Assembly (NCBI GenBank): GCA_965203935.1
Contig: OZ241921.1
Location: 839,354 to 903,353 of the forward strand
Direction: 5' to 3'
DNA length: 64,000 nt
Origin: Bdellovibrionales bacterium
GTDB taxonomy: Bacteria > Bdellovibrionota > Bdellovibrionia > Bdellovibrionales > UBA1609
Shown: piece after piece, positions 3,749 to 63,531 of the stretch
Position numbering within the stretch: position 1 is the first letter of the stretch
How the letters are laid out: every line of letters starts with the position of its first letter
Program-made: the position numbers and the translations under genes
Notes under the pieces: model-generated
Database searches by the model: none
What the model was told of the DNA's origin: nothing
Seen by the model: only the letters and a program-made list of their open reading frames with translations

Positions 3749-6490
3749 TCATTGTTGGGGGTAATGGTCTGTAGCTCCTAATGAGTATAACAGGCTGACT
3801 AGTTGGTGCTGGTCGTACATTTCAGCTATTTTCAAGACCTTCTTCCAACGATGATCCTTGAGATCTATATCAGCTCCTCTTCTGATCAACAGTTCGATTG
3901 CTTTTATATGCCTCATTCTTACGGCCTCCGTTAAGGCCGTCCACCCATCATCATTCTTGATATTTATATCCGCTCCTCTATCGATCAACAGTTCGATTGT
4001 TATTACTGGATCCTTTTTTGCTGGATCCTTGTCTGCTATTACAGCGAACATCAAAGCTGTGTGCCCTGCCGAGCGAGTTCTGTAATTTACATCAGCTCCG
4101 CTGTCGATCAGGAGTCTGACTGTTTCTGTATGGCCTTCGTATGCGGCCTCCATTAAGGCTGTCCTCCCCCGGTGATAGTCGTCATTTACATCAGCTCCGC
4201 TGTCGATCAGGAGTCTGACTGTTTCTGTACGGCCTTTTCTTGCGGCTAATATCAAGGCCGTAACCTTATAATGATCCCTGGCGTGTATATCAGCTCCTCT
4301 ATTGATCAAGAATCTGACTGATTCTGTACGGCCTTCGCTTGCGGCCTCCATTAAGGCTGTTCTCCCTTCCTCATTTTTGTAGTCTATATAAACCCCTCTA
4401 TCGAGCAACAGTGTGAGGAAGCTGGTACTCTGTTCGTTTCTTGCGAAATCAATCAACATAGCGCCTTGATTCAAAACCCGGCTCCAAGGGGAATCTAAAA
4501 TTTGCTTAAGCTGAGACAGATCCCGGGCTGATGCTATTTCATTTTCAGTAAGCTTTGTTATAAACTCTTTTCTGTAACCTACAGCGTTCTTCCAGTTGCT
4601 CATTTCTCCTATTAAAGCCTCTTTTTCTTTTTCTGAAAATAAAGATGCTTTTTCCTCTAAAAATGAAATATGCCGTGTTGTCTTTTGCGGTGGCTCTATT
4701 GTCAGAGAAAACTCTATTAAAGTGTAAAAAGCCTTCTTTCTTACTTTAAAGGAAAAATCTTTATGTCGCATAACAAAGTTCAGATGATTATCCACATACT
4801 GATCTGACAAATTAAGCTCCTTTATCTGTCTCATAGTAAGAAGATTATTTAAAAATTGTATCTGATCTTGATTGATTGTGGATTTTTCCAAAAGCAACAC
4901 AGGCTCGTATAAAGAGAGAATACTTAATTCGGGGTGGACTTTTCTAAGTGCGGGAATCTCCCCAGGGCTTATTTTAACTCCCCCTAAGGGCACAGCCTCA
5001 AACTTCAAAAGCTGTAGCCGGCTGTAGGCTCTGGAATAACCTGTCGCTGTATATAATAAGTTTTTATACTCATGCTCATGCGGTTTAAAGTTGTTAAGGA
5101 TTATTGAGAGATCAGGCAGAATTTTCCTTCCCACATAATCACTCACCAAAGCCTCATTGGAAAGTCCGTTTAGGTCTCCCACATCCTTTGGCAGGGCCAA
5201 TACATAGCCTTGTTCTTTTAAGCTTAGATAAATCCCCTGTAACACGGCATTAAGCTTTTGCGGTTCTATATTCTGAATTTTATCCACAAAAGCGGTTTTT
5301 ACTGTCAGGCCCTTTGGGCTTTGAGCTTCCCCCAAAACTAAAGTGACATGGCCTGAGGATTCATGACGGCTGTTTGTCAAAGTGAAGTACAAAAAATTAG
5401 GATCCAAAGCCGTCTCAAAATAAGTATTGGTGGCACAGTCTCCACTAAGGCAAGATCTAAAAGGCGACTCCTGAATGGAAAGGGGCCTTAGTCTTAACAC
5501 TTCTGTTCCTCTAACAGCAGTATCCGGCTGATTTTGAATCTCCTCTGTGATTTGAGTTAAATATTTTGTTTTATCCGGTATTTTGGCCTTAAAGTGTGCT
5601 TTAAGCTCTGCAAAATGCCCGGTAAAGCCCAGTTCAAAAGCCAAAATATCCTGTTCGTTTAAAATACTGCGCAAAGCGTTTAAGCTTTCATGTGGGTCTT
5701 TGCTTTTTAAAAGCTCCACCCAAGTTTTATTTCCAAAGCCTGCGGTATGAATTAAATCCGCTATAACCTGAGAAATGTTTTGAATAATTTTTTGACGGGA
5801 CTCACGGGATTCGTAGGATTCATGGGAGAAATGAATAATATCTTTGATGGAGGAGTCAGCTTCTGCTGTTTCTAAAGAATGTCTTATCTTTTCCAAAGCT
5901 TTGTATAAGGCAATAGTTCTTTCCCGGTAAGGCTTTGAGTCATCTTTTATAAAATCGCGAAGTTTTTTATTTAAAGCTGTGCTGTCCAAATAGGCTGTAA
6001 GATCTTTATTGCGCTTTTTCCTAAGAGCCTTTTTTTCCTCTTTGCTTAAAGAAGAGTCTTCTATCTTGCTGAATCCCAGTGTTTTAGCCCAAAAGCCCAA
6101 GTTTGCCTCCACCTGAAACAGGCTGTTTCGTAATCTGGAGCTTTCGTTTCGGAAAGAGGAAATAAAGTCTTTAAGACTGTTAGGTGTTTCTTTTTTTGTT
6201 ACAGTAAACTCCAGAATTTGCTCTCTTACAATCAGCTTGGAAAGCTCAGGATATTGGTTTAAGATATTTAGGACATCCTGTAAGGAATGAAATCTTACAA
6301 CATCTCTCGGATAAGGGGTTTTGTTTGTGAGATAGAGTTTAAAGAGCGGGTCTTGCCCTTTACTTAAAGCGAGCTGTTTGGTCATGGCCTCATAAAAGGA
6401 ATCCGGATCAGAAAAGGCTTCTTCACAAATATTTGCATAAGCCGAGCCAACAGCAAAAATAAAAACAGCTATAAAAGCGCGCATAATCAT
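3749..6490 (-). CDS. secreted ankyrin-repeat protein, paralogue 1 (large conserved N-domain plus about 7 C-terminal ANK repeats)
   Basis: Signal peptide MIMRAFIAVFIFAVGSAYA. The C-terminus has repeated G.TALM.AA..GH.E.V.LLI..GADVN units typical of ankyrin repeats. It is 86-90% identical over most of its length to the gene at 7387-9912. Confidence 0.75.
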   Translation of the reverse strand: MIMRAFIAVFIFAVGSAYANICEEAFSDPDSFYEAMTKQLALSKGQDPLFKLYLTNKTPYPRDVVRFHSLQDVLNILNQYPELSKLIVREQILEFTVTKKETPNSLKDFISSFRNESSRLRNSLFQVEANLGFWAKTLGFSKIEDSSLSKEEKKALRKKRNKDLTAYLDSTALNKKLRDFIKDDSKPYRERTIALYKALEKIRHSLETAEADSSIKDIIHFSHESYESRESRQKIIQNISQVIADLIHTAGFGNKTWVELLKSKDPHESLNALRSILNEQDILAFELGFTGHFAELKAHFKAKIPDKTKYLTQITEEIQNQPDTAVRGTEVLRLRPLSIQESPFRSCLSGDCATNTYFETALDPNFLYFTLTNSRHESSGHVTLVLGEAQSPKGLTVKTAFVDKIQNIEPQKLNAVLQGIYLSLKEQGYVLALPKDVGDLNGLSNEALVSDYVGRKILPDLSIILNNFKPHEHEYKNLLYTATGYSRAYSRLQLLKFEAVPLGGVKISPGEIPALRKVHPELSILSLYEPVLLLEKSTINQDQIQFLNNLLTMRQIKELNLSDQYVDNHLNFVMRHKDFSFKVRKKAFYTLIEFSLTIEPPQKTTRHISFLEEKASLFSEKEKEALIGEMSNWKNAVGYRKEFITKLTENEIASARDLSQLKQILDSPWSRVLNQGAMLIDFARNEQSTSFLTLLLDRGVYIDYKNEEGRTALMEAASEGRTESVRFLINRGADIHARDHYKVTALILAARKGRTETVRLLIDSGADVNDDYHRGRTALMEAAYEGHTETVRLLIDSGADVNYRTRSAGHTALMFAVIADKDPAKKDPVITIELLIDRGADINIKNDDGWTALTEAVRMRHIKAIELLIRRGADIDLKDHRWKKVLKIAEMYDQHQLVSLLYSLGATDHYPQQ

Positions 6491-7386: not shown

Positions 7387-9912
7387 TCAAAGAATGTCCG
7401 CCCTCGCCCCCCATTGATCCTTGGCCTCTGTATCAGCTCCTTCGTCAATCAACAGTCTGACTGTTTCTATATGGCCTGCGATTGCGGCCTCCATCAAAGC
7501 CGTGCGCCCCGACTTATCCTTAGCGTTTATATCAGCTCCTTCGTTAATCAACAGTCTGATTGTTTCTATATGGCCTTCGCTTGCGGCCTCCATCAAAGCC
7601 GTGCGCCCCGATTTATCCTTAGCGTTTATATCAGCTCCTTCGTTAATCAACAGTCTGACTGTTTCTATACGGCCTGCGATTGCGGCTTTCATCAAGGCTG
7701 TTTTTCCCTGTTCATCCTTGGCGTTTATATCAGCTCCTCTGTTAATTAATATTCTGACTGTTTCTATATGGCCAAGCATTGTGGCCACCATCAAGACTGT
7801 TCTTCCTGTCTCATCTTTGTAGTCTATATAGGTCCCTCTATCCAAGAGCAGTGTAAGAAAGTTGATGTCCTGTTTGTTGTATATGAGATAAGTCCACATA
7901 ACCCTTGGATCCAAAATCTGATTCCAAGGGGAATCTAAAATTTGCTTAAACTGAGACAGATCCTGGGCTGATGTTATTTCATTGTCAGTAAGCTTCGTTA
8001 TAAACTCTTTTCTGTAACCCACAGCGTTTTTCCAGTTGCTCATTTCTCCTATTAAAGCCTCTTTTTCTTTTTCTGAAAATAAAGATGTTTTTTCCTCTAA
8101 AAATGAAATATGCCGTGTTGTCTTTTGCGGTGGCTCTATTGTCAGAGAATACTCTATCAGAGAATATTCTATCAGAGAATACTCTATTAAAATGTAAAAG
8201 GCCTTCTTTCTTACTTTAAAGGAAAAATTTTTGTTTTGCATAACAAAGTTCAGATGATTATCCACATACTGATCTGACAGGTTAAGCTCCTTTATCTGTC
8301 TCATAGTAAGAAGATTATTTAAAAATTGTATCTGATCTTCATCTTTTGTGGATTTTTCCAAAAGCAACACAGGCTCGTATAAAGAGAGAATACTTAATTC
8401 AGGGTGGGCTTTTCTAAGTGCGGGAATCTCCCCAGGGCTTATTTTAACTCCCCCTAAGGGCACAGCCTCAAACTTCAAAAGCTGTAGCCGGCTGTAGGCT
8501 CTGGAATAACCTGTCTCTGCATATAATAAGTCTTTATACTTATGCTCATGCAGTTTAAAATCGTTAAGGTTTTTTGAGAGATCAGGCAAAATTTCCCTTC
8601 CCACATAATCACGCACTGAAGCCTCATTGGAAAGTCCGTTTAGGTCTCCCACATCCTTTGGCAGGGCCAGTATATAGCCTTGTTCCTTAAGGCTTACACT
8701 AATTCCCTGTAGCACGGCCTTAAGCTTTTGCGGTTCTATATCCTGAATTTTATCCACAAAAGCGGTTTTGACTGTCAGGCCCTTTGGGGTTTGAGCTTCC
8801 CCCAGCGCTAAAGTGACATGGCCTGAGGATTCATGACGGCTGTTTGTCAAAGTAAAGTACAAAAAATTAGGATCCAAAGCCGTCTCAAAATAAGTATCGG
8901 TGGCACAGTCTCCACTAAGGCAAGATCTAAAAGGCGACTCTTGAATGGAAAGTGGCCTTAGTCTTAAAACTTCTGCTCCTCTAACAGCAGTATCCGGCTG
9001 ATTTTGAATCTCCTCTGTGATTTGAGTTAAATATTTTGTTTTATCCGGTATTTTGGCCTTAAAGTGTGCTTTAAGCTCTGCAAAATGCCCGGTAAAGCCC
9101 AGTTCAAAAGCCAAAATATCCTGTTCGTTTAAAATACTGCGCAAAGCGTTTAAGCTTTCATGTGGGTCTTTGCTTTTTAAAAGCTCCACCCAAGTTTTGT
9201 TTCCAAAGCCTGCGGTATGAATTAAAACCGCCATGACTTGAGAAATATTTTGAATAATATCTTTGGTGGAGGAGTCAGCTCCTGCTGTTTCTAAAGAATG
9301 TCTTATCTTTTCCAAAGCTTTGTATAAGGCGACAGTTCTTTCCCGGTAAGGCTTTGAGTCATCTTTTATAAAATCGCGAAGTTTTTTATTTAAAGCTGTG
9401 CTGTCCAAATAGGCTGTAAGATCTTTATTGCGCTTTTTCCTAAGAGCCTTTTTTTCCTCTTTGCTTAAAGAAGAGTCTTCTATCTTGCTGAATCCCAGTG
9501 TTTTAGCCCAAAAGCCCAAGTTTGCCTCCACTTGAAACAGGCTGTTTCGCAATCTGGAGCTTTCGTTTCGGAAAGAGGAAATAAAGTCTTTAAGACTGTT
9601 AGGTGTTTCTTTTTTTGTTACAGTAAACTCCAGAATTTGCTCTCTTACAATCAGCTTGGAAAGCTCAGGATATTGGTTTAAGATATTTAGGACATCCTGT
9701 AGGGAATAATCAGTGTCTCTTTGGTAAGGGGTTTTGTTTATGAAATAGAGTTTAAAGAGTGGTTCCTGCCCTTCCTTTAAAACAAGCTGTTTGGTCATGG
9801 CCTCATAAAAGGAATCCGGATCAGAAAAGACTTCCTCACAAGGGCCTGTTGCATAAGCTGGAAACAGGTAGCAGAAAAAAAGTACAGCTTTTAAACCGCG
9901 CATAATAATCAT
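7387..9912 (-). CDS. secreted ankyrin-repeat protein, paralogue 2 (tandem duplicate of 3749-6490)
   Basis: The ORF track gives 7387-10146. The start was reassigned to the ATG at 9912 (MIIMRGLKAVLFFCYLFPAYA), which aligns with the signal peptide of paralogue 1. C-terminal ANK repeats are present. It contains an in-frame 15-bp x3 repeat (IEYSL x3) at 8143-8187. Confidence 0.7.
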   Translation of the reverse strand: MIIMRGLKAVLFFCYLFPAYATGPCEEVFSDPDSFYEAMTKQLVLKEGQEPLFKLYFINKTPYQRDTDYSLQDVLNILNQYPELSKLIVREQILEFTVTKKETPNSLKDFISSFRNESSRLRNSLFQVEANLGFWAKTLGFSKIEDSSLSKEEKKALRKKRNKDLTAYLDSTALNKKLRDFIKDDSKPYRERTVALYKALEKIRHSLETAGADSSTKDIIQNISQVMAVLIHTAGFGNKTWVELLKSKDPHESLNALRSILNEQDILAFELGFTGHFAELKAHFKAKIPDKTKYLTQITEEIQNQPDTAVRGAEVLRLRPLSIQESPFRSCLSGDCATDTYFETALDPNFLYFTLTNSRHESSGHVTLALGEAQTPKGLTVKTAFVDKIQDIEPQKLKAVLQGISVSLKEQGYILALPKDVGDLNGLSNEASVRDYVGREILPDLSKNLNDFKLHEHKYKDLLYAETGYSRAYSRLQLLKFEAVPLGGVKISPGEIPALRKAHPELSILSLYEPVLLLEKSTKDEDQIQFLNNLLTMRQIKELNLSDQYVDNHLNFVMQNKNFSFKVRKKAFYILIEYSLIEYSLIEYSLTIEPPQKTTRHISFLEEKTSLFSEKEKEALIGEMSNWKNAVGYRKEFITKLTDNEITSAQDLSQFKQILDSPWNQILDPRVMWTYLIYNKQDINFLTLLLDRGTYIDYKDETGRTVLMVATMLGHIETVRILINRGADINAKDEQGKTALMKAAIAGRIETVRLLINEGADINAKDKSGRTALMEAASEGHIETIRLLINEGADINAKDKSGRTALMEAAIAGHIETVRLLIDEGADTEAKDQWGARADIL

Positions 9913-31280: not shown

Positions 31281-31496
31281 AGTAGCCCGTGAACAACCTC
31301 TGTCCTATTAGTTTTCAGCAGGCAAAGGCTTAAGCTTGTTCGTGACGGAATAAGTAGTCGGGTGTGATAAAGTGCCCCTTAAGCATTTTTGTCCAAAGTC
31401 CGTGCCGTGAGGGTCCAAGGTACTCCGTCCCGAAACGGTGCGGACTTTGGACAAAAACAGCTAAAGAGCAAGGGTTTTTCACGGACCACTAAGTAG
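31281..31496. repeat. mosaic palindromic repeat cluster R2 (one hairpin unit interrupted in its loop by a second junction-bounded unit)
   Basis: The stem ggcaggcaaaggcttaagc plus loop ttgttcgtgacggaata is followed by the inserted junction agtagtcgggtgtgataaag. A second unit follows: ttgtccaaagtccgtgc-[cgtgagggtccaaggtactccgtcccgaaacgg]-tgcggactttggacaa. It ends with tttttcacggaccactaagtag. Confidence 0.75.
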
Positions 31497-31621
31497 ATTT
31501 TTTTGACTCAAAACACAGTTTTTTAGCGGTTTTTCACGAGACTTAAAAGAGTCTTGACAATATTCTTAATTTATGATGTAAAAAAACCTGTTCTTTCAAC
31601 AATGGCAAAAAGGAGAGTAAA

Positions 31622-32377: not shown

Positions 32378-32697
32378 TCGGGCGTGAAAAAGGCCGGCTT
32401 TCATAGTTGGCATAAGCAAAACCCCGCCTTGTTCGAGACGGAGTACCTTGGACTCTCACCGGCGGGGTTTTGCTTATGCCACAAAGAACAAGGGTTTTTC
32501 ACGGGCTACTAATTAGTCGTCCGTAAAAAACCTCTTTAAATTATGTCTCAAAAGCAAAGCCAAGCGAAGAGGGTCCAAGTGTAAAACTGGAAGTCGCCTG
32601 TGCGACTTCCAGCCCGAATGAGCTTGGACTTTGCTTTTGAGACCAGCAGTTTAGTAGCCTTTTTCACGCCCCACTAATTAGTCGTCCGTAAAAAACC
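32370..32697. repeat. mosaic palindromic repeat cluster R3 (two hairpin units, three junctions), abutting IS copy 1
   Basis: The junction taattagtcgggcgtgaaaaagg is followed by gcataagcaaaaccccgcc-[ttgttcgagacggagtaccttggactctcaccg]-gcggggttttgcttatgc and a junction. A second unit carries a nested small hairpin ctggaagtcgcctgtgcgacttccag, followed by a junction. It ends in the GC hairpin ccccccttgggggg plus a T-rich tract. Confidence 0.8.
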
Positions 32698-32728
32698 TCA
32701 GCTCCCCCCTTGGGGGGATTTTCTTTGT

Positions 32729-34686
32729 CCCGACTTCGACACAACACTATGAGTTAAAAAATATTTTGAGGTTTTTTTAGACCAGCCGGGTTGTTTTTGT
32801 TTGGTTTTGAGTGGTAAAATCAGTAAAAATTAAAGTTGTGTTCCCGACCCCGACCTTTACTTCCTCGATCTCTTCTGGAACAGTAAAAACATGTTTATCA
32901 AGGTCACTGAAAAAATCTCAAGCAAAAACCGAAAAATTAAATCTTTCCGGATTATGGAATCGGTACGCAAAGGCTCAAAAACCATTCATAAAACAGTGCG
33001 CTTTGTGGGATCCTCCACGAACCCGGATATCATCAAGTCTTTGGAACAGATATCTCATAATCTGATCGTAAAGCTCAGCAATGACCGACAGCCCGCCCTT
33101 CCCGGCATGGCCAAAGTCATCTACAGCAAAGAATCTCAGTACATAAACAAAAAACCAAAACAACAGAAGAAAAAACAAAAGCCTGTTTCTATCTTCTCCC
33201 TTAAAAAGCCACAGGAAACAGCACGCATCCAGCACGGCATTAAAGGAGTATGCGGGGCTGTCTATGAACAGTTAGGCTTTCATACCCTCATACAAGACAC
33301 CAACAAAGATCAACAATGGAACAACATCTTAAAATACTGTGTCCTTGCCAGAGTGGCCCACCCGGATTCCAAAAGAAAAACAGTAGACACTTTGGCAGAG
33401 GATTTTAACGAGACTGTTCCTTTGGAAAAAATGTATCGCATGATGGACAGGCTTTATCCACGCATAGAAAAAGCAAAAGACATGGCGGCCAAAAACACCC
33501 TGAGCCTGTTTAACCAAGAAGTGGATATTCTTTTCTTTGATGTCACCACCCTTTACTTTGAAAGCTTTGAAGAAGACGATACAAGACAGTTCGGCTTCAG
33601 CAAAGATAAAAAGTTCAACGAAACACAAGTGGTCTTAGCCCTTATCACCAACCAAGAAGGTCATCCCCTAAGCTATGAGCTGTTTCCCGGAAGCACAAGC
33701 GAAGGATCCACCCTTATTGCCACAGTTCAGAGATTAAAACAAAGATTTACAGTCAAAAACGCCGTATTGGTGGCCGACAGAGCCATGTTTAATGAGCAAA
33801 ACCTTACACTCATGGAGGAAGAGGGGATTCAATATGTGGTGTCCGCCAAGTTAAAGTCCCTGCCCAAAAGCAAGAAAGATGAGATTTTAGACAAAAACTT
33901 AAAATCTTCCACTGTCTCAGAAGACCCACACAGGGTAAAGATAAAAGAGCTTGAGTATAAACAAAGAAGACTCATTATAAGCCACTCAGAAAAAAGAGCC
34001 AAAAAGGATGAGGCGGACAGACTAAGACTCATTAAAAGACTGATGAAAAAAGTAAAGAACAAGCAAATCCCCATAAAAAGCCTTATCCCCAATCATGGCA
34101 CCAAAAAATACATCACAGTTCAAAAAACCAAAGCTACACTCAATGAACAAAAAATAGCTGAAGACAGCCGTTGGGACGGCCTGCATGGACTTATTACCAA
34201 CATGAAAGATAAGCCCCCCCAAGAACTCCTCACCCGATACAGACAGCTCTGGAAGATAGAAGAGGCTTTTCGTGTGTGCAAACACACTCTTAAGATGAGA
34301 CCCATTTACCACTGGAAGAGGAAAAGAATCGAGGCTCATATTGCTATATGCTTCTTGGCTTACTCGCTTTCTTACACTATGAAACACAGAATGGAGCAAA
34401 GAGGACTGAACTTCAGTATCCGAAAGATGAGAGAGATTTTAAAAAGAGATCAATACAGTATTATAGAGGATGCAAATAAAAATCTCTATCGTATGCCCTC
34501 TAAATCCACAGAACCGATACAGGCTATATACGAGGCTTTGGGGCTTAAAAGAACTTCTCAATTTATTCCTTTTTCCTAAGCCCTGTTAAACTCCCTTCTT
34601 AAATGTTCTTACAAGATGTGTGGCCCCAAGAATTTATAAGTTATTGATATCACTCACTTAATGCCTTGCGTTGTGTCGAAGTCGGG
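32729..34686 (+). mobile_element. IS4/IS1634-family insertion sequence, copy 1 (1958 bp, about 19-bp terminal inverted repeats cccgacttcgacacaacac)
   Basis: IRL cccgacttcgacacaacac at 32729. IRR gcgttgtgtcgaagtcggg ends at 34686. A single 562-aa transposase ORF lies inside. Confidence 0.8.
32891..34579 (+). CDS. DDE transposase, IS4 superfamily (IS1634-like)
   Basis: LFFDVTTLYFES (D1, DxT..yFE), VLVADRAMFN (D2) and YRQLWKIEEAFRVCK (Y-2-R-3-E-6-K signature). The 562-aa length is typical of the IS1634 group. Confidence 0.75.
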   Translation: MFIKVTEKISSKNRKIKSFRIMESVRKGSKTIHKTVRFVGSSTNPDIIKSLEQISHNLIVKLSNDRQPALPGMAKVIYSKESQYINKKPKQQKKKQKPVSIFSLKKPQETARIQHGIKGVCGAVYEQLGFHTLIQDTNKDQQWNNILKYCVLARVAHPDSKRKTVDTLAEDFNETVPLEKMYRMMDRLYPRIEKAKDMAAKNTLSLFNQEVDILFFDVTTLYFESFEEDDTRQFGFSKDKKFNETQVVLALITNQEGHPLSYELFPGSTSEGSTLIATVQRLKQRFTVKNAVLVADRAMFNEQNLTLMEEEGIQYVVSAKLKSLPKSKKDEILDKNLKSSTVSEDPHRVKIKELEYKQRRLIISHSEKRAKKDEADRLRLIKRLMKKVKNKQIPIKSLIPNHGTKKYITVQKTKATLNEQKIAEDSRWDGLHGLITNMKDKPPQELLTRYRQLWKIEEAFRVCKHTLKMRPIYHWKRKRIEAHIAICFLAYSLSYTMKHRMEQRGLNFSIRKMREILKRDQYSIIEDANKNLYRMPSKSTEPIQAIYEALGLKRTSQFIPFS

Positions 34687-34771
34687 AAAAAAGCAAAAAA
34701 AAGCGCAAAAATGTCACCACTGTAAGAAAAATAAACACTTTTGGCCGGGTGCTTGGATTTTTCAGGCGGTG

Positions 34772-34943
34772 AAAAAAATAAAAAAATACAGTAATTTCAA
34801 TAATTTACGATATTTTTTTGAAAACAACAAACTTTCGGCCCCTGTTTTGCATCATTATAGACAAAAAACCATTTTATCAGGAGGTAAAAAAAATGAAAAA
34901 ATCAGGTATCCTTATATTGTTTATTGCTTATTGTCACTGTTCT
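34772..34943 (+). repeat. 172-bp direct repeat (left copy) flanking IS copy 2; contains RBS plus first 17 codons of the gene at 37014
   Basis: Identical to 36893-37064. It includes aggaggtaaaaaaaatgaaaaaatcaggtatccttatattgtttattgcttattgtcactgttct, then runs directly into the IS left end. Confidence 0.8.
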
Positions 34944-36892
34944 CCTGACTTCGACACAACACTATGAGTTAAAAAATATTTTGAGGTTTTTTTAGACCAG
35001 CCGGGTTGTTTTTGTTTGGTTTTGAGTGGTAAAATCAGTAAAAATTAAAGTTGTGTTCCCGACCCCGACCTTTACTTCCTCGATCTCTTCTGGAACAGTA
35101 AAAACATGTTTATCAAGGTCACTGAAAAAATCTCAAGCAAAAACCGAAAAATTAAATCTTTCCGGATTATGGAATCGGTACGCAAAGGCTCAAAAACCAT
35201 TCATAAAACAGTGCGCTTTGTGGGATCCTCCACGAACCCGGATATCATCAAGTCTTTGGAACAGATATCTCATAATCTGATCGTAAAGCTCAGCAATGAC
35301 CGACAGCCCGCTCTTTCCGGCATGGCCAAAGTCATCTACAGCAAAGAATCTCAGTACATAAACAAAAAACCAAAACAACAGAAGAAAAAACAAAAGCCTG
35401 TTTCTATCTTCTCCCTTAAAAAGCCACAGGAAACAGCACGCATCCAGCACGGCATTAAAGGAGTATGCGGGGCTGTCTATGAACAGTTAGGCTTTCATAC
35501 CCTCATACAAGACACCAACAAAGATCAACAATGGAACAACATCTTAAAATACTGTGTCCTTGCCAGAGTGGCCCACCCGGATTCCAAAAGAAAAACAGTA
35601 GACACTTTGGCAGAGGATTTTAACGAGACTGTTCCTTTGGAAAAAATGTATCGCATGATGGACAGGCTTTATCCACGCATAGAAAAAGCAAAAGACATGG
35701 TGGCCAAAAACACCCTGAGCCTGTTTAACCAAGAAGTGGATATTCTTTTCTTTGATGTCACCACCCTTTACTTTGAAAGCTTTGAAGAAGACGATACAAG
35801 ACAGTTCGGCTTCAGCAAAGATAAGAAGTTCAACGAAACACAAGTGGTCTTAGCCCTTATCACCAACCAGCAAGGTCATCCCCTAAGCTATGAGCTGTTT
35901 CCCGGAAGCACAAGCGAAGGATCCACCCTTATTGCCACAGTTCAGAGATTAAAACAAAGATTTACAGTCAAAAACGCCGTATTGGTGGCCGACAGAGCCA
36001 TGTTTAATGAGCAAAACCTTACACTCATGGAGGAAGAGGGGATTCAATATGTGGTGTCCGCCAAGTTAAAGTCCCTGCCCAAAAGCAAGAAAGATGAGAT
36101 TTTAGACAAAAACTTAAAATCTTCCACTGTCTCAGAAGACCCACACAGGGTAAAGATAAAAGAGCTTGAGTATAAACAAAGAAGACTCATTATAAGCCAC
36201 TCAGAAAAAAGAGCCAAAAAGGATGAGGCGGACAGACTAAGACTCATTAAAAGACTGATGAAAAAAGTAAAGAACAAGCAAATCCCCATAAAAAGCCTTA
36301 TCCCCAATCATGGCACCAAAAAATACATCACAGTTCAAAAAACCAAAGCCACACTCAATGAACAAAAAATAGCTGAAGACAGCCGTTGGGACGGCCTACA
36401 TGGACTTATTACCAACATGAAAGATAAGCCCCCCCAAGAACTCCTCACCCGATACAGACAGCTCTGGAAGATAGAAGAGGCTTTTCGTGTGTGCAAACAC
36501 ACTCTTAAGATGAGACCCATTTACCACTGGAAGAGGAAAAGAATCGAGGCTCATATTGCTATATGCTTCTTGGCTTACTCGCTTTCTTACACTATGAAAC
36601 ACAGAATGGAGCAAAGAGGACTGAACTTCAGTATCCGAAAGATGAGAGAGATTTTAAAAAGAGATCAATACAGTATTATAGAGGATGCGAACAAAAATCT
36701 TTATCGTATGCCCTCTAAATCCACAGAACCGATACAGGCCATATACGAGGCTTTGGGGCTTAAAAGAGTGTCTGACTTTGTATCCGGTTCCTGAAGTTTT
36801 ACCGGACTTCAGTCTTAAAATGTGTGCCCCCGTAAAAACTCATAAGTATATGATATCACTCACTTAATGCCTTGCATTGTGTCGAAGTCGGG
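34944..36892 (+). mobile_element. IS4/IS1634-family insertion sequence, copy 2 (1949 bp)
   Basis: IRL cctgacttcgacacaacac at 34944. IRR gcattgtgtcgaagtcggg ends at 36892. Near-identical to copy 1 except the last ~100 bp before the IRR, which also changes the transposase C-terminus. Confidence 0.8.
35106..36794 (+). CDS. DDE transposase, IS4 superfamily (IS1634-like), copy 2
   Basis: About 99% identical to 32891-34579 until the last 10 codons (..LGLKRVSDFVSGS versus ..LGLKRTSQFIPFS). Confidence 0.75.
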   Translation: MFIKVTEKISSKNRKIKSFRIMESVRKGSKTIHKTVRFVGSSTNPDIIKSLEQISHNLIVKLSNDRQPALSGMAKVIYSKESQYINKKPKQQKKKQKPVSIFSLKKPQETARIQHGIKGVCGAVYEQLGFHTLIQDTNKDQQWNNILKYCVLARVAHPDSKRKTVDTLAEDFNETVPLEKMYRMMDRLYPRIEKAKDMVAKNTLSLFNQEVDILFFDVTTLYFESFEEDDTRQFGFSKDKKFNETQVVLALITNQQGHPLSYELFPGSTSEGSTLIATVQRLKQRFTVKNAVLVADRAMFNEQNLTLMEEEGIQYVVSAKLKSLPKSKKDEILDKNLKSSTVSEDPHRVKIKELEYKQRRLIISHSEKRAKKDEADRLRLIKRLMKKVKNKQIPIKSLIPNHGTKKYITVQKTKATLNEQKIAEDSRWDGLHGLITNMKDKPPQELLTRYRQLWKIEEAFRVCKHTLKMRPIYHWKRKRIEAHIAICFLAYSLSYTMKHRMEQRGLNFSIRKMREILKRDQYSIIEDANKNLYRMPSKSTEPIQAIYEALGLKRVSDFVSGS

Positions 36893-37064
36893 AAAAAAAT
36901 AAAAAAATACAGTAATTTCAATAATTTACGATATTTTTTTGAAAACAACAAACTTTCGGCCCCTGTTTTGCATCATTATAGACAAAAAACCATTTTATCA
37001 GGAGGTAAAAAAAATGAAAAAATCAGGTATCCTTATATTGTTTATTGCTTATTGTCACTGTTCT
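36893..37064 (+). repeat. 172-bp direct repeat (right copy) flanking IS copy 2
   Basis: Identical to 34772-34943. It continues into the intact gene. Confidence 0.8.
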
Positions 37065-43869: not shown

Positions 43870-44190
43870 GACGACTACTTTAGTCGGGGGTGAAAAACCC
43901 TTGCTCTTTAGCTGTTTTTGTCCAAAGTCCGCACCGTTTCGGGCTGAAAGCTCTGAAAGGCAAGCCTTTGCCTTTCAGTATAGGGCTTTCAGTTTTACGC
44001 AAAAACAAAGAAGAACGGAAGGCCAAATTGTTGGCCTTCCGCCTCACGGCACGGACTTTGGACAAAAATGCTAAGGGGGCACTTGTTTACGGACGACTAC
44101 TTTAGTCTTAAGCGGTGAGAGTTAAATCGTATTCCGTCTCGAACAAGCTTGGACTTTGCTTTTGAGACATAATTTAAAAGGGTTTTCACA
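43870..44190. repeat. mosaic palindromic repeat cluster R4 (hairpin unit with two nested small hairpins in its loop, plus a chimeric second unit)
   Basis: The junction acgactactttagtcgggggtgaaaaacc is followed by ttgtccaaagtccgcac cgtttcggg. The loop carries [ctgaaagctctgaaaggcaagcctttgcctttcagtatagggctttcag ttttacgc ... gaaggccaaattgttggccttccgc] ctcacggc acggactttggacaa. A junction follows, then cttaagc-[ggtgagagttaaatcgtattccgtctcgaa]-caagcttggactttgc. Confidence 0.75.
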
Positions 44191-44946: not shown

Positions 44947-45097
44947 AATAATTAGTCGCCCGTGATAAACACCTGTAAATTATGTCTCAAAAGCAAAGCC
45001 AAGCGGTGAGGGTCCAAGGTATTCCGTCCCGAACAAGCTTGGCTTTGCTTTTGAGACCATGCAGTTTAGTAGCCTTTTTCACGCCCGACTAATTAAG
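44947..45097. repeat. mosaic palindromic repeat cluster R5
   Basis: The junction taattagtcgcccgtgataaa is followed by tctcaaaagcaaagccaagc-[ggtgagggtccaaggtattccgtcccgaacaa]-gcttggctttgcttttgagac. It ends ...agtttagtagcctttttcacgcccgactaatta. Confidence 0.8.
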
Positions 45098-45324: not shown

Positions 45325-45466
45325 TTAATTAGTCGGGGGTGAAAAACCTTGCTCTTTAGCTGTTTTTGTCCAAAGTCCGCACCGTTTCGGGACGGAATAC
45401 CTTGGACCCTCACGGCACGGACTTTGGACAAAAATGCTCAAGGGGGTACTTTTTCACGGGCTATTA
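45325..45466. repeat. mosaic palindromic repeat cluster R6
   Basis: The junction gtttaattagtcgggggtgaaaaacc is followed by ttgtccaaagtccgcac-[cgtttcgggacggaataccttggaccctcacgg]-cacggactttggacaa. It ends ctttttcacgggctattaaaaaag. Confidence 0.8.
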
Positions 45467-48874: not shown

Positions 48875-48951
48875 TTCGCAAATCCTTAAAATCACTGGAA
48901 AACCCGTACAATCAACTATTTAACCCATCATAACCTATCCCCGGTTTCCTC

Positions 48952-49045
48952 TCATTTGTGCCATTTATTGTGCCATTTATTGTGTCATTTATTGTGTCAT
49001 TTATTGTGCCATTTATTGTGTCATTTATTGTGCCATTTATTCCCG
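48952..49045. repeat. 13-bp tandem repeat (c/t)catttattgtg, about 7 copies
   Basis: ccatttattgtgccatttattgtgtcatttattgtgtcatttattgtgccatttattgtgtcatttattgtgccatttatt runs directly into the solo IS end. Confidence 0.85.
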
Positions 49046-49095
49046 ACTTCGACACAACACCTATGAGTTAGAGAATATTTTGAAGTTTTTATTGC
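49043..49095 (+). mobile_element. solo left-end remnant of the IS1634-like element (about 50 bp)
   Basis: cccgacttcgacacaacacctatgagttagagaatattttgaag matches the IS left end cccgacttcgacacaacactatgagttaaaaaatattttgagg, then diverges. No transposase ORF. Confidence 0.6.
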
Positions 49096-51098: not shown

Positions 51099-53918
51099 AT
51101 GAGACGGTTATTCTTTATCATGTTTTTGTGTTCTTTAACAGCCAGCCCGGTTTATGCCGGACTTTGCGACGAGGCTTTTTCTGATAAGGGAGAGACTTTT
51201 TCTGCTGTGGAATCTTTTGCCTCAGCGATGACAAAAGGGCTTATTTTAAGAAAGGGGCAGGACAGTCTGTTTGATTTGTATGTAAACCTTTATTTTCCCT
51301 ATCCTTCCAAAAAAAATATTGGAGATGTGGCTGATGTGTTAGGCCGTTTAGAATCCTCCCCTTATTTGTCCAAGCTTCCTGTAAGAGAGCAAACACTTCA
51401 TTTTTCCATAAAAGAGCGGGATCGCCCGGAAAGCCTTAAAAAATTTATCGCTTCTTTTAGCAGGTCCGCCCGTCGGATCCAAGACAATCTTTTTCAGATA
51501 GAGGCCAATTGGTTTTTTTTGGCCAAACTGCTTGATTTTCCCGCAATGCCGTCAAACTTTTTTGCAGGTAAATTGGATGCAAGCGCCTTAAACAGAGAAA
51601 ACCGCGCCTTCATACAAGATCCCATGCGGGATTATCGGGAAAAAGTGATGGTTTTATACAAAGCTCTATCTAAAAAGGAAAAACAGCGGTTCAAGCAAGA
51701 ATACAGAGATGATTTTATGGCCTATTTGGATGCAAGCGCCCTAAACAGCGAAACCCGCGCCTTTATACGAGATCCCAGCCGGGATTATCGGGAAAAAGTG
51801 ATGGTTTTATACAAAGCTCTACAGGAGATTAAACAGTCCTCTGTCAGCGATTTGGCAAAGCGAAACCTATCGCAGACTATGGCGGAACTTATTTGGACAG
51901 CGGGTTTTGGGAATCCGGCTTACAGAGTCGCTCTTGCCGACAAATCTCCTGAAGAAAGCCTGGAGGCTTTACGAAATATTTTAAATGAAAGGGATATCAT
52001 AGCTTTTCGTTTGGGCTTTAACGGACATTTCGCTCAGCTTAAAAAAGAACTTAGGGCGAATATCCCGGAGGAAACAAAAATATTACAGCAAATCACACAG
52101 GACATTCAAAACCAGCCGGGCCGGGTGAAAAAAACCGAGATTTTAAGACTCAGAGCTTTATCCTTTATAGAGTCGCCTTTTCGATCTTGTTTGAGCGGAG
52201 ACTGCGCGACGGAGAATTATTTTACAAAAGCCTTGGATCCTAATTTTCTTTACTTCACTTTAACGGATATTCATCATCGATCTTCCGGCCATGTTACTGT
52301 GGTTTTGGGCACAGCTGAGACAAAAACCGGCGAAAGGGTAAACACGGCTTTTGTGGATCAGATTCAAAATATTGCTCCTAACAGGCTTAAAGCTGTGCTT
52401 GAGGGGATTCGTTTAAGTCTTGAAGAATCCGGCTACAGGCTGGGTCTTCCAGAGGATGTGGGGGATACTCTCTACGGCCTTTCCAATGAGGCTTTGGTGG
52501 GTCTTTATGTGGAATCAAAGATTTATTCGAATTTGCAAAACAAGCTAAAGGACTTTGAGCCTCATATACTGGAGGAAAGTTTTAATTCGTCTTTAAGGAG
52601 GAATAATCTTGAAGAGGCTTTTGGCGATTACGGCTTCACCTCTCTTAATACCGGTGTCCGCGCCGAAGACTGGAACTTTTCTTTCAAGGTGAAAGATGAG
52701 AAGAAAAAGAGATATGATAATAAGAACTATGATAAGGGAGAGTTGAATACTACGAGAGATTACGAATACCTTTATGGCCTTTACGGCTCCGAAGAATCCT
52801 CCGCCGGCCCTAGATGGCACTACTATGATTATGCAGACATCGCCGAAGCCGATTATCCAAGCAGAGCTTATGATAAACTTTTAGAGCTTGAGCCTTTAAA
52901 ACTTAAAGATGTGAGGATCGTTGAGGGAGAAGAACCTTTTATCCGGTTGGCCGACGAAAATTTAAGCGTTCACTCTTTATATGAGAAAATTTTACCTTTG
53001 GCGGATTCCCACAAAGAGGAAGACAGGATAAAATTCTTAAATAACCTCTCCGCCCTAAACCAGGTGGAAGATCTTAATTGGCGCATAGAGGATATAAGGC
53101 GGTATTTGCATTCTGTGCTTGAGAATAAAGATTTTTCTTTTAAACTGAGGAAAAAAGCTTTTTTTACTGTTATTGAATTTGAATGGTATAACAGTAAAGA
53201 TTCAGACAAGTTTGAGTTTTCCGATTTGAAGCAAAAAATATCTGATTATTTTTCTTCAAAGGCGGAAAAAAAGGCCCTTATAGGTGAAATGAGCAGTTGG
53301 AAAAAGACAAGGGAGGATTATCGCCTGCACTTTATCGAAGAATTAAACGATAACGCCTATGCTTATATGCTTGCGGAATTTAAAAACTCAGGTGTCTTTG
53401 ACCCCTTAAGATATGGTGAGCTTACTCCCTTGTGGGATCTGAGCTATATGTTGATTAAAACCATCAAATACGATGGACATCCTATAGCCCTTGTGCGAAA
53501 GCTTTTGGAGGCGGGCGCGGATCCCAATGTTAGGGATAAAAGTATGAAAGGGGGCTCAGGCTGGATATCCCACGGGCTTTTCGTGATGCGGGATGAGCCT
53601 CATAATGACGGGTATTCCCTCCTAATGCTTTCTGCGGGTGAAGGCCGAACAGATACAGCCCGGCTCCTGCTGGAGTGGGGCGCTGATGTGCATGCCAAAA
53701 GTAAGTTCGCGCATAATGATACGGCGCTTAATGTGTCGGTGGATACGGGCCATAAAGATACAGCTCTTTTATTTTTGGAATGGGGTGCGAATATCAATGA
53801 AGCATTCGCACAAAGAACGATTCTCGATGAACAGTTGGACAGAAAAAATACAGACATGGTGGATTTTTTGAAAAGCCGGGGCGCTAAACAGTTTCAAGCA
53901 CTTGACACTTCTTATTAG
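51099..53918 (+). CDS. secreted ankyrin-repeat protein, paralogue 3 (divergent; shares conserved core with 3749-6490)
   Basis: Start reassigned to the ATG at 51099 (MRRLFFIMFLCSLTASPVYAGLCDEAFSD, which aligns with the N-terminus of paralogue 1). The conserved block ESPFRSCLSGDCAT.NYF..ALDPNFLYFTLT....SSGHVTVVLG is present. An internal ~105-bp duplication lies at 51573-51677 and 51726-51830. The C-terminus has ANK repeats. Confidence 0.7.
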   Translation: MRRLFFIMFLCSLTASPVYAGLCDEAFSDKGETFSAVESFASAMTKGLILRKGQDSLFDLYVNLYFPYPSKKNIGDVADVLGRLESSPYLSKLPVREQTLHFSIKERDRPESLKKFIASFSRSARRIQDNLFQIEANWFFLAKLLDFPAMPSNFFAGKLDASALNRENRAFIQDPMRDYREKVMVLYKALSKKEKQRFKQEYRDDFMAYLDASALNSETRAFIRDPSRDYREKVMVLYKALQEIKQSSVSDLAKRNLSQTMAELIWTAGFGNPAYRVALADKSPEESLEALRNILNERDIIAFRLGFNGHFAQLKKELRANIPEETKILQQITQDIQNQPGRVKKTEILRLRALSFIESPFRSCLSGDCATENYFTKALDPNFLYFTLTDIHHRSSGHVTVVLGTAETKTGERVNTAFVDQIQNIAPNRLKAVLEGIRLSLEESGYRLGLPEDVGDTLYGLSNEALVGLYVESKIYSNLQNKLKDFEPHILEESFNSSLRRNNLEEAFGDYGFTSLNTGVRAEDWNFSFKVKDEKKKRYDNKNYDKGELNTTRDYEYLYGLYGSEESSAGPRWHYYDYADIAEADYPSRAYDKLLELEPLKLKDVRIVEGEEPFIRLADENLSVHSLYEKILPLADSHKEEDRIKFLNNLSALNQVEDLNWRIEDIRRYLHSVLENKDFSFKLRKKAFFTVIEFEWYNSKDSDKFEFSDLKQKISDYFSSKAEKKALIGEMSSWKKTREDYRLHFIEELNDNAYAYMLAEFKNSGVFDPLRYGELTPLWDLSYMLIKTIKYDGHPIALVRKLLEAGADPNVRDKSMKGGSGWISHGLFVMRDEPHNDGYSLLMLSAGEGRTDTARLLLEWGADVHAKSKFAHNDTALNVSVDTGHKDTALLFLEWGANINEAFAQRTILDEQLDRKNTDMVDFLKSRGAKQFQALDTSY

Positions 53919-53969
53919 CGCAGGCATAATATAGAAAATACGGCGCTTAAAAGCAAAAACGCGCCGAAA

Positions 53970-54178
53970 CTAAATAGTCGGGCGTGAAAAAGGCTATTAA
54001 ACTGCTGGTCTGCAAGCAAGTCCAAGCTTGTTCAGGCTGGAAGCCCTACGGATAGGGCTTCCAGTTTTACGAAAAAACAAAGAAGAACGGAAGGCCAAAT
54101 TGCCCACCTATACGCCTTCACCGCTTGGCTTTGCTTTTGAGACATAATTTAAAGGGGTTTTTCACGGGCCATTAAATA
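53970..54178. repeat. mosaic palindromic repeat cluster R7 (hairpin with nested sub-hairpins)
   Basis: The junction ctaaatagtcgggcgtgaaaaaggctattaaactgctggtc is followed by tgcaagcaagtccaagc ttgttcagg [ctggaagccctacggatagggcttccag ttttacg...gaaggccaaattgcccacc...] accg cttggctttgc. It ends ...ggtttttcacgggccattaaatag. Confidence 0.75.
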
Positions 54179-56303: not shown

Positions 56304-56585
56304 CATTAGTCGGGTGTGAAAAAGAACCGTATTGCACTCTCCGCCCGGTTTTTAAAGGGCCGGAGGGTTCAGACAGGCGCCGTTTGGCGATATTTGATTT
56401 TCACGACCATCCTGTTGTTCAAGAAAAGTCCTTTATTTGAGACATGCTGTTTGGCTTGACCAATTTTTAAGTTTATTGTTTCCTGTTTTGCCATTACTCA
56501 AATATCGCCAAAGGCGAACTCACCTCCAGCCCTTTAAAAACCGGGCGGAGACCAAAGTCTGTTTTTCACAGGCGACTACATTAAT
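56304..56585. repeat. mosaic palindromic repeat cluster R8 (junctions flanking a ~240-bp long imperfect hairpin of different sequence)
   Basis: The junction cattagtcgggtgtgaaaaag is followed by long inverted arms (ctctccgcccggtttttaaagggccggagg...gccgtttggcgatatttg // caaatatcgccaaaggcg...cctccagccctttaaaaaccgggcggagac). The end junction gtttttcacaggcgactacattaatg is degenerate. Confidence 0.7.
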
Positions 56586-57279: not shown

Positions 57280-57384
57280 ATACCTATTTCTTATAAGCTT
57301 TTGGAAATATACATGCAGGCAAAAAAGTCTGGTTTTTTGCCTTTTTTTCATAAAAAAATTGCCAAACAGATAAACAAGGTACTA

Positions 57385-57695
57385 TAATCAGTCGGGCGTG
57401 AAAAAGGCCAGCTTGAGTGGTTCTGTATGCTTTAGCCTTAAGCTCATTCGGGACGGAATACCTTGGACCCTCTTCGCTTGGCTTTGCTTGCAGACATAAT
57501 TTAAAGGGCTTCTTCACGGGCTAATAATTAGTCGCCTGTGAAAAAGCTTCATTTTGTCCTGTTAGTGATGTTGGCAGGCAAAGGCTTAAGCGGTGAGTGT
57601 TAAATCGTATTCCGTCACGAACAAGCTTAAGCCTTTGCCTGCTGAAAACTAATAGGTCAGAGGTTTTTCACGCCCGACTAATTAGTGGCCCGTGA
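57385..57695. repeat. mosaic palindromic repeat cluster R9 (two hairpin units, three junctions)
   Basis: Junction, then gccttaagc-[tcattcgggacggaataccttggaccctcttcg]-cttggctttgcttgc. Next is the junction gggctaataattagtcgcctgtgaaaaag, then ggcaggcaaaggcttaagc-[ggtgagtgttaaatcgtattccgtcacgaacaa]-gcttaagcctttgcctgc. The end junction is gtttttcacgcccgactaattagtggcccgtga. Confidence 0.8.
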
Positions 57696-60808: not shown

Positions 60809-60978
60809 AGAGAGGCATGTGAAAAACCCCTGTAAATTATGTCTCAAAAGCAAAGCCAAGCGGTGAGGGTCCAAGTGTAAAACTGAAAGCCCTATACTTA
60901 GGGCTTCCAGCCCGAACAAGCTTGGACTTTGCTTGCAGACCAGCAGTTTAGTAACCTTTTTCACGGAGGACTAAAGAG
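60805..60978. repeat. mosaic palindromic repeat cluster R10
   Basis: A degenerate junction is followed by tctcaaaagcaaagccaagc-[ggtgagggtccaag tgtaaaa ctgaaagccctatacttagggcttccag cccgaacaa]-gcttggactttgcttgcagac. It ends cagcagtttagtaacctttttcacggaggactaaag. Confidence 0.75.
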
Positions 60979-62183: not shown

Positions 62184-62335
62184 CGAATTAGTCGTTCGTG
62201 AAAAAGGCTGGCTTTCATAATTGGCATAAGCAAAACCCCGCCTTGTTCGGGACGGAATACCTTGGACCCTCACCGCCGGAGTTTTGCTTATGCCACAAAT
62301 AACAAGGGTTTTTTACGGACCGCGAATTAGTCACG
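62184..62335. repeat. mosaic palindromic repeat cluster R11
   Basis: The junction cgaattagtcgttcgtgaaaaagg is followed by gcataagcaaaaccccgcc-[ttgttcgggacggaataccttggaccctcaccg]-ccggagttttgcttatgc. It ends ...ggttttttacggaccgcgaattagtc. Confidence 0.8.
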
Positions 62336-62379
62336 ATCAGAGAAGTCAGCCGCGTCGAATTAGCTCCCCCCTTGGGGGG

Positions 62380-62402
62380 GTGGATGGGGTGGCAGGATTC
62401 GC
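62380..62402 (-). repeat. partial direct repeat of the tRNA-Gln 3' end (about 21-23 bp)
   Basis: ggtggatggggtggcaggattcg repeats 62566-62588 (CCA + acceptor 3' strand + T-arm half) in the same orientation. It is preceded by the GC hairpin agctccccccttggggggg, which is also seen at 32698. Confidence 0.6.
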
Positions 62403-62567
62403 CTGCTATGTTCGTTCGCGTCCGGCTCACTCACGGCGCAGGCCCCCCTCAGTCGCTCATAAAATCATCCAGATTTTATGCCCCGTGCTAACTGCTCCCA
62501 ATAGGTCGCAGTCATCACGGGTCGCTCCTTCGCTTCGAATCCTGCCGGGATTTTTTGTTAGAAAAAA

Positions 62568-63216: not shown

Positions 63217-63531
63217 ATAATTAGTGGAGCGTGAAAAAGGCTTCCAAGTGTATTGTCTGCAAGCAAAGTCCAAGCTCATTCGGGACGGAATACCTTGGAC
63301 CCTCTTCGCTTGGCTTTGCTTGCAGACATAATTTAAAGGGCTTCTTCACGGACGACTAATTAGTGGCCTGTGAAAAAATGCCCCTTAAGCATTTTTGTCC
63401 AAAGTCCGTGCTGTGAGAGTCCAAGGTACTCCGTCTCGAAACAGTGCGGACTTTGGACAAAAACAGCTAAAGAGCAAGGGTTGTTCACGAGCTACTAATT
63501 AGTGGCCTTTTTCACGCCCGACTAATTAGGC
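63217..63531. repeat. mosaic palindromic repeat cluster R12 (two hairpin units, conserved loop in opposite orientations, four junctions)
   Basis: A junction is followed by tgcaagcaaagtccaagc-[tcattcgggacggaataccttggaccctcttcg]-cttggctttgcttgc and the junction cttcttcacggacgactaattagtggcctgtgaaaaaatg. The next unit is ttgtccaaagtccgtgc-[tgtgagagtccaaggtactccgtctcgaaacag]-tgcggactttggacaa. It ends with a double junction ttgttcacgagctactaattagtggcctttttcacgcccgactaattagg. Confidence 0.8.

Follow-up and report, generated by a model that had tools for sequence, protein, structure and literature searches.

In a 64-kb window of a Bdellovibrionales bacterium genome (contig OZ241921.1, positions 839,354 to 903,353; "the window" below means this whole stretch), repeat finding, alignment and an nhmmer profile identified a 132-bp hairpin repeat in about 20 copies, whole or partial. 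The window corresponds to positions 1477241-1541240 of a circular metagenome assembly of 2,030,416 bp (ena:ERZ25068400:ctg22163_58x_c). The repeat is probably a previously undescribed and fairly ordinary family of the MITE type (miniature inverted-repeat transposable elements). On balance, we favor an account in which hairpins grow locally at the tip of the repeat and are exchanged there between copies, the tip being a hot spot for both. Two small hairpins that occur in the tips of some copies, here called hp1 and hp2, are in our judgment rather likely to be outgrowths of the repeat's own tip and not independent jumping elements. The original prediction for this DNA, made from the locus R2 (31281-31496) and similar units, had instead proposed site-specific insertion of hairpins and whole units into the loop, giving a Russian-doll organization.

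The canonical length of 132 bp was found in 7 of the 15 measured units, and the variants range from 133 to 267 bp. All units in the window are bounded by imperfect terminal inverted repeats containing a variable 5-mer, which read T-N5-GTGAAAAAGG at one end and CCTTTTTCAC-N5-AC at the other; the 5-mers of the two ends are unlike (CGGGC vs AGCCC), which gives the units a polarity. The arms fall into at least five sequence types, which we named A to E, and the center of the unit reads GTTCGGGACGGAATACCTTGGACCCTCACCGC, with a conserved 21-nt tip, GGGACGGAATACCTTGGACCC. This center folds into a small hairpin of its own, built on a GGG/CCC helix for which several units have GAG/CTC or GTG/CAC instead; the helix would then close a true apical loop of about 15 nt (ACGGAATACCTTGGA). 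The tip hairpin GGG-ACGGA-ATACC-TTGGA-CCC is kept in two species. Motif counts in the window were far above chance, with 8 matches to TTGTCCAAAGTCCGTGC vs 0.22 expected and 5 matches to CTTYCAGTTTTAC vs 0.40 expected. The stem is strongly supported by covariation: when 31 canonical cores, drawn from the window, from a sister strain and from a related genome (OZ251471.1), were aligned, 19 of 21 stem pairs had changed on both sides and still paired, 88.6% of cells were paired compared with 70.6% in shuffles and with 24-51% in controls with a slid partner, and 162 cells had changed on both sides vs 45.8 in shuffles. All units are intergenic, lying between called genes, and many begin at or beside a stop codon.

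Several lines of evidence show that the units move. Identical 7-mers flank 9 of the 15 units in a fixed register, mostly with the consensus TAATTAG, and non-consensus heptamers also match on both sides of the inner R2 unit (TAAGTAG) and of units 53978 (TAAATAG) and 62192 (GAATTAG), where units are named by their first position. Re-registering by eye revealed three more flank matches, TAAAGAG at 60813, ACATTA at 56310 and the 8-bp direct repeat TACTTTAG that borders unit 43884-44097, a unit identical in the sister strain; one unit of OZ251471.1 bears TTATTTAT on both sides. As these flanking sequences are direct and not inverted repeats, we interpret them as target duplications. An element end and its duplication together would re-form a TAATTAG-like palindrome (ACTAATTAGT) beside which new copies could settle, which may account for the arrays, with a period of 139 bp, in which copies accumulate. 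Elements with the same ends and unrelated interiors, one of 267 bp at 56310-56576 and one of 127 bp in the sister strain (L049 2514-2640), suggest that one shared transposase serves several non-autonomous families. As a separate observation, tandem pairs keep a fixed order, the loop of the first unit on the plus strand and that of the second on the minus strand with right ends facing, in all five window pairs (31283/31358, 32378/32517, 43884/44110, 57392/57532 and 63225/63364) and in two elsewhere (L049 2637-2865 and L009 50-231); the sole exception is a truncated pair in L020.

Small non-coding size, terminal inverted repeats, target duplication and dispersed copies with evidence of movement together characterize the family as MITE-like. 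Bacterial MITEs, such as Correia/CREE of Neisseria, Nezha, Chunjie and ERIC, are small multi-copy elements with terminal inverted and flanking direct repeats (PMC3184786, PMC10969869). The units resemble them in being non-coding, multi-copy, intergenic sequences of about 100-200 bp with terminal inverted and direct repeats and a long hairpin fold, and also in having subtypes defined by internal indels and locations that vary between close strains (PMC3184786, PMC10969869). They differ in duplicating 7 bp at TAATTAG-like sites, where Correia and ERIC duplicate TA, and in having no known partner insertion sequence (IS). Pairing of the arms persists although their sequences diverge strongly from one subfamily to another, conservation is higher in the central 21-nt tip than at the ends, and the related genome also contains the core without these ends. 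The sole IS of the window, which encodes a 562-aa DDE_Tnp_1 protein, was considered as the partner element and rejected, its ends (CCCGACTTCGACACAAC) being unrelated to the units.

Other repeat classes match less completely. The pneumococcal BOX, RUP and SPRITE repeats are likewise small and modular, with a variable center (boxB copy number in BOX), clustering and mutual insertion, and SPRITE looks like a terminator (PMC10969869); they have no sequence relation to the units, in which hairpins stacked on the tip helix, rather than tandem boxB modules, make up the variable part. Like REP/BIME/REPIN sequences, the units are palindromic intergenic repeats with alternating neighbor orientation and compensated stems, and are targets for other insertions. 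REPs are 20-40 bp long, GC-rich and tagged with GTAG or CGTC, and they leave no target duplication (PMC3733652); the 132-bp units with their 7-bp duplications are thus unlike RAYT-mobilized REP/REPIN elements. GTAG lies beside the unit end in a few copies only, the units have neither the tag nor the 20-40 bp size of that class, and no RAYT gene was found among the Pfam-annotated genes of the window. In Rfam, only two tRNAs in the window reached the gathering score, and E-value scans of the units returned chance hairpin matches only. The JGI metagenome collection held no match to the junction palindrome or to a 25-nt form of the tip, and plasmid and phage collections gave no BLAST match with a unit.

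We next describe the tip variants (see the table for coordinates). hp1 consists of CTGRAAG, an inner perfect hairpin and CTTYCAG, followed by TTTTAC. It takes the place of ACGGAATAC in units 32517-32674 and 60813-60971 and in a fifth copy shortly beyond the window, at window-equivalent 71085-71256, whereas in units 43884-44097 and 53978-54172 hp1, a spacer and hp2 stand in place of ACGGAATACCTTGGAC. Specifically, hp1 and a 16-nt spacer lie between GGG and ACGGAA in the latter two units and hp2 follows, in full at 43884 and as its left half at 53978. This agrees with the original prediction, which held that the loop segment gtattccgt is replaced by one or two small hairpins and that the inner stems of hp1 vary; every string it quoted was found at or near its expected place, and unit 43884 proved to contain a further nested hairpin (43953-43978), which re-uses hp1's own CTGAAAG/CTTTCAG arms. 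Unit 43884 folds as a stack of hairpins (-63 kcal/mol, z = -9.3). The inner stems of the five hp1 copies differ and all are fully paired, for which either a template-switch-like mechanism or selection for pairing is needed.

hp2 reads ACGGAA-GGCCAA-ATTG-TTGGCC-TTCCG-CCTCAC, such that the canonical ACGGAA..TTGG.C..CCTCAC is retained in order and the extra GGCCAA and TTCCG are exact reverse complements of the retained TTGGCC and CGGAA. Bases of the canonical loop and the reverse complements of those bases make up hp2, a composition that points to growth in place. A documented route to perfect stems is template switching (PMC8794818): one event makes a perfect reverse-complement repeat from adjacent sequence and explains multi-base compensated stems (Monttinen and Loytynoja 2022, PMC8794818). 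When a weak hairpin is perfected by template switching, the result has the make-up seen in hp2 (PMC8794818), and the nested hairpin of hp1 fits the same process. The described cases concern rRNA and other RNA genes, whereas here the process would act on tips of mobile repeats and is read from sequence make-up only.

All counted copies of the small hairpins (hp1, n = 5; hp2, n = 3) lie inside unit tips. No solitary hp1 or hp2 was found in the window plus 19 kb of flanks (about 83 kb of the 2.03-Mb genome) or in 160 kb of OZ251471.1, so that the ctgRaag...cttccag hairpins, whose presence alone in the genome had been put forward for checking, were absent as free copies from the DNA inspected. The hp2 sequence upstream of ankyrin paralogue 2, earlier taken for a fragment, is indeed there, but it is a complete hp2 (9985-10011) with compensating changes that sits in the tip of the degenerate unit 9925-10054 and is not free; this unit is unchanged in two other strains. 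Reading of the aligned tips revealed no direct repeat flanking hp1 or hp2, and thus none of the target-site duplications for which the breakpoints were to be checked. Tips with hp1 or hp2 substitute for 8-16 nt rather than adding to the loop, and all tip variants sit on the conserved GGG/CCC helix. Across the two species we count about 8-9 independent structural changes, all within about 17 of the 132 nt and above this helix. The recurring breakpoint first noticed is accordingly real as a cluster within the 17-nt tip but is not one bond, since the left boundary falls between GGG and AC for hp1, between GGGAC and GG for an 80-nt insert of OZ251471.1, and after GGAATA for hp2 at 9925 and for R2. 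Other truncated copies break outside the tip, 44110-44190 within the inner stem and four remnants so that only the ends are left.

A loop-motif scan of species-representative genomes identified OZ251471.1, a 2.0-Mb metagenome-assembled genome of a Bdellovibrionales bacterium, as the only other multi-copy genome among the matches listed. Its genes are 65-77% identical to those of the window at the DNA level and its repeats 80-92%. The canonical tip occurs in both species. At least four OZ251471.1 units have a multi-hairpin insert of 80 nt where GGAATACC would stand between GGGAC and TTGGACCC, and one of these bears two further nested pieces; the insert was seen only in OZ251471.1, and hp1 and hp2 were not found in the 160 kb of that genome and were seen only in the window species. 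Some subfamilies of OZ251471.1 have different ends (CCTGAAAAAG) or none. A search for an orthologous empty site in that species was given up, synteny being lost outside genes. Among closer relatives, nine unit loci were compared between strains, of which only R2 differs and eight are unchanged. Six of the compared loci bear hairpins or variant tips (units 53978 and 60813 fall outside the comparison), and none of the six showed a presence/absence difference for hp1 or hp2; for units 9925, 32517 and 43884, the sequences in strains L052, L054, L049 and L056 are identical. Look-ups of the S14 and PEP-mutase genes for further strains returned the source genome only.

The same tip can be found on different arms. 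The inserts of units 43884 and 53978 share 51 nt at 96% identity despite B-type vs A-type arms, and the TTAAAT and GAG/CTC tip variants occur on several arm types, which suggests that tips or arms have been exchanged between copies; the chimeric unit 57392 fits this interpretation. A C-type unit at L049 5095-5221 has its tip reduced to GGG-CTGAA-CCTCAC and looks like an hp1 tip after a deletion, suggesting that tips shrink as well as grow. We therefore propose, for the growth and exchange of tips, that the tip may be the one part of the palindrome that tolerates length change, and that template switching or hairpin-primed copying there would make new perfect inverted repeats, of which hp1, hp2 and the 80-nt insert of OZ251471.1 would be lineage-specific examples. 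A tip variant, once made, could spread passively with its unit and might reach other arm types when copies recombine or undergo gene conversion with one another. Canonical tip, perfected palindrome and hairpin within hairpin thus form a series in a single genome that could be used to test template switching in nature.

At R2, the prediction that a complete unit sits inside the loop of another is right about the inserted unit, which is real, is flanked by a TAAGTAG duplication and has an empty counterpart in the sister strain, and wrong about the outer unit, of which only the 5' half can be recognized. This half (31283-31350) aligns to nhmmer model positions 6-77 (E = 2e-11) and is 93% identical to the reverse complement of 57608-57680. 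Downstream of 31496, no 3' loop half or right arm could be recognized (nhmmer E = 4.9; arm body p = 0.95), and the DNA there was rejected as the outer unit's right arm save for an end-like 15-mer, GGTTTTTCACGAGAC at 31528-31542, possibly what is left of the interrupted unit's right end. In a single-strand fold of R2, only the inner unit pairs, as one long hairpin. In sister strain L049 (ERZ25070167), the flanking genes are 99.3-99.5% identical and the R2 interval is 366 bp long vs 246 bp in the window. It reads ...GTATTCCGTCCTGAA TAAGTAG ATTTTTTTGAC..., with a single TAAGTAG and no unit at that place, which makes the inner R2 unit a genuine insertion with an empty-site counterpart. This empty site also lacks the canonical 3' loop half, indicating that the half was lost before the inner unit arrived. 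A B-type unit lies close by in L049, oppositely oriented, and its 8% difference from the window copy argues for independent insertions in the two strains. We attempted to derive R2 from the sister strain by one inversion, deletion or loop recombination, and no single event fits. R2 is probably a compound in which a B-type copy entered a TAAGTAG heptamer adjoining an already damaged D-type copy; the insertion follows the family's TAATTAG-like heptamer preference and not loop recognition. One locus has been remodeled several times between strains that are 99.4% identical.

Some observations weigh against the combination of MITE-type mobility and tip growth. Conservation of the tip exceeds that of the ends, even between species, and a subfamily of OZ251471.1 has the core hairpin and tip without the GTGAAAAAG ends (L019 7399-7503, L022, L032, L043 and L045), with a 3' tail that contains TTTATCAAC...TCATTCAGGCTGTCATTCCCGC repeats; neither feature is usual for a MITE, and the tip itself may be what is read. 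No autonomous element with matching ends was found in the window. Moving a tip between arm types requires recombination on only 7-8 nt of shared flank, and a 9-mer test for tip inserts as patchworks of family sequence was weakly positive, mostly not beyond shuffles. Growth in place does not explain the origin of hp1, and the statement that hp1 and hp2 never occur alone is a limited one, resting on about 83 kb of the 2.03-Mb genome. Finally, no single event accounts for the history of R2.

The first two of these points would be accommodated if the core, that is the co-varying stem with the 21-nt tip GGGACGGAATACCTTGGACCC, were the selected part, acting as a recognition hairpin for a protein or as a structured RNA carried on several repeat chassis, whose tip gives birth to hairpins by template switching that are then swapped between copies. 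We hold this to be an appreciable though minority possibility. If true, the family would be a natural and still active case of de novo hairpin birth and modular exchange in a bacterial repeat, and stem covariation together with cross-species tip conservation raises the testable question of what reads the loop.

A broader functional alternative is that the units are functional structured nucleic acids, either RNA or protein-bound DNA hairpins, with the tip as a binding site and the extra hairpins as selected add-ons such as terminators or RNA-stability modules. The very strong stem covariation, a tip kept across species with 65-77% gene identity and the presence of the core hairpin in a repeat type without the usual ends all speak for it, and for MITE transcripts, roles as terminators or as targets of RNase are known (PMC10969869). 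Many units directly follow stop codons, and minus-strand hp2 is the top terminator-like match in 20 kb (13 pairs, tail CTTCTTTGTT). However, the units have no Rfam match and lie in both orientations relative to neighboring genes, G-U pairs vs A-C mismatches gave no clear transcribed strand, the target duplications show spread by transposition, and arm-to-arm correction in palindromes can also yield covariation. As for hp1, we tried it as a terminator and rejected it, as it fails the scan with 4 T only and is sensibly placed in 2 of 5 cases. We consider this explanation unlikely; a regulatory role of the units is possible but unsupported.

Site-specific insertion, in which small hairpins and whole units would be independent mobile elements that enter one loop position as true Russian-doll nesting, appears very unlikely. 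It accounts for the clustering of changes in the 17-nt tip, for the same insert on unrelated arm types and for one hp1-like hairpin nested in another, and ISs that target REP palindromes are known (PMC3184786). In addition, the 5' side of hp1 with its loop flank resembles a unit left end (TCGGGC-TGRAA vs TCGGGCGTGAAA; best p = 0.002, uncorrected over 24 tests). Yet the 3' side of hp1 is unlike an element end, and hp1 as an ends-only mini-unit was rejected because only its left side is suggestive and it has no duplication. The varying left boundaries, the replacement of 8-16 nt rather than addition, the absence of target duplications around the small hairpins, of free copies in about 83 kb plus 160 kb and of strain polymorphism at comparable loci all stand against insertion. 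R2 has an ordinary 7-bp duplication at a TAATTAG-like site, and its empty site was already without the loop 3' half. Its mobile element inside another palindromic repeat does recall IS1397, ISKpn1 and the IS110 family, but unlike REP-targeting ISs, which carry a transposase gene and have a defined REP target, this only clear insertion obeys a general heptamer preference. What survives of the Russian-doll organization are true hairpin-in-hairpin structures at the tip, probably formed otherwise than by insertion of independent elements.

It is similarly improbable that tip variation is scar tissue, left as non-functional products when SbcCD-type nucleases cut extruded tips and repair is untidy: palindromes are known to be fragile at the center of symmetry (PMC3855049), changes are confined to the tip, the tip at L049:5095 is cut down and the R2 half unit stops mid-tip, but what was added takes the form of perfect hairpins, their stems compensated, rather than of random filler, the variants are multi-copy and stable between strains, and the mechanism overlaps with tip growth rather than excluding it.

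Table. Copies of the repeat and related features in the window (positions in the 64-kb stretch).
Position	Strand	Feature	Details
9925-10054	+	degenerate unit	tip = GGGACGGAATA + TCAGAGAA + hp2 (9985-10011); nhmmer E = 1.6e-4
19774-19796		ends-only remnant	
19800-19931	+	canonical A-type unit, 132 bp	TAATTAG both sides
31283-31350	+	5' half of D-type unit (R2)	left end T-AGCCC-GTGAACAA, left arm, tip up to GACGGAA
31351-31357		TAAGTAG, left target duplication of inner unit (R2)	7/7 identical to 31490-31496
31358-31489	-	complete 132-bp B-type unit, canonical tip (R2)	nhmmer full length E = 5e-36; 97% match to 45333-45464
31490-31496		TAAGTAG, right target duplication (R2)	homology with sister strain L049 resumes exactly here
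31528-31542	+	end-like motif GGTTTTTCACGAGAC	local alignment p = 0.002-0.08; only unit-like part downstream
32378-32509	+	canonical C-type unit	(+,-) tandem pair with unit at 32517
32517-32674	-	A-type unit with hp1 in tip	hp1 32587-32612, tail GTAAAA 32581-32586; identical in sister strain
32683-32704		ends-only remnant	
43884-44097	+	B-type unit	hp1 43944-43992, nested hairpin 43953-43978, spacer 43993-44014, hp2 44015-44041
44110-44190	-	truncated A-type unit, TTAAAT tip variant	nhmmer model positions 14-96; breaks in inner stem, not tip
44956-45089	-	canonical A-type unit	
45333-45464	+	canonical B-type unit	
53978-54172	+	A-type unit with hp1, spacer and hp2 left half	hp1 54037-54064, hp2 left half ~54087-54102; TAAATAG both sides
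56310-56576	none	element with unit-like ends, unrelated interior	267 bp; ACATTA direct repeat
57392-57524	+	canonical-tip unit, mismatched (chimeric) arms	
57532-57678	-	D-type unit, TTAAAT tip variant	GTG/CAC replacing GGG/CCC helix
57686-57702		ends-only remnant	
60813-60971	-	A-type unit with hp1	hp1 60883-60910; TAAAGAG both sides
62192-62323	+	canonical C-type unit	GAATTAG both sides
63225-63356	+	canonical A-type unit	first of (+,-) pair
63364-63495	-	canonical B-type unit	second of (+,-) pair; followed by remnant 63503-63529
63503-63529		ends-only remnant	

The ends-only remnants may be internal deletions or excision footprints; in the one at 63503-63529, the start of a left end is fused directly to a right end. 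Strong sigma-70-like promoter matches (11/12) lie just upstream of units 57392 (57359-57388) and 53978 (53902-53930), and the -10 box of the first overlaps the target heptamer of unit 57392. For annotation, the units account for many of the intergenic palindromes and terminator-like matches in such genomes, and they add a dense family, about 20 copies per 64 kb, to the 2-Mb, ankyrin-rich genome of an uncultured lineage. The window contains paralogous large ankyrin-repeat genes at 3749-6490 and 7387-10146 with a 99-bp internal periodicity, and leucine-rich repeat and more ankyrin genes nearby; in a 2-Mb genome, such genes suggest a host-associated lifestyle.

The DDE_Tnp_1 IS is present in two tandem copies, at 32728-34687 and 34944-36891. 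The sister strain is without either copy, and synteny breaks there. The second copy is bordered by a 173-bp direct duplication (34771-34943 = 36892-37064), which we take to resemble the long duplications made by IS1634-type elements. A solitary left end of this IS (CCCGACTTCGACACAACACC...) directly adjoins about 8 tandem copies of a 12-nt repeat, TTGTGYCATTTA, at 48944-49090. A second repeat family (CAGCTCCCCCCTTGGGGGGATTTTCTTTGTGAGAATCACGATCG...) lies beside tRNA genes, at 32700-32725 and 62350-62545 in the window, at L049 4060-4230 and in L028 (at least four copies); it is in tandem in the sister strain and about 90% conserved in the related genome.

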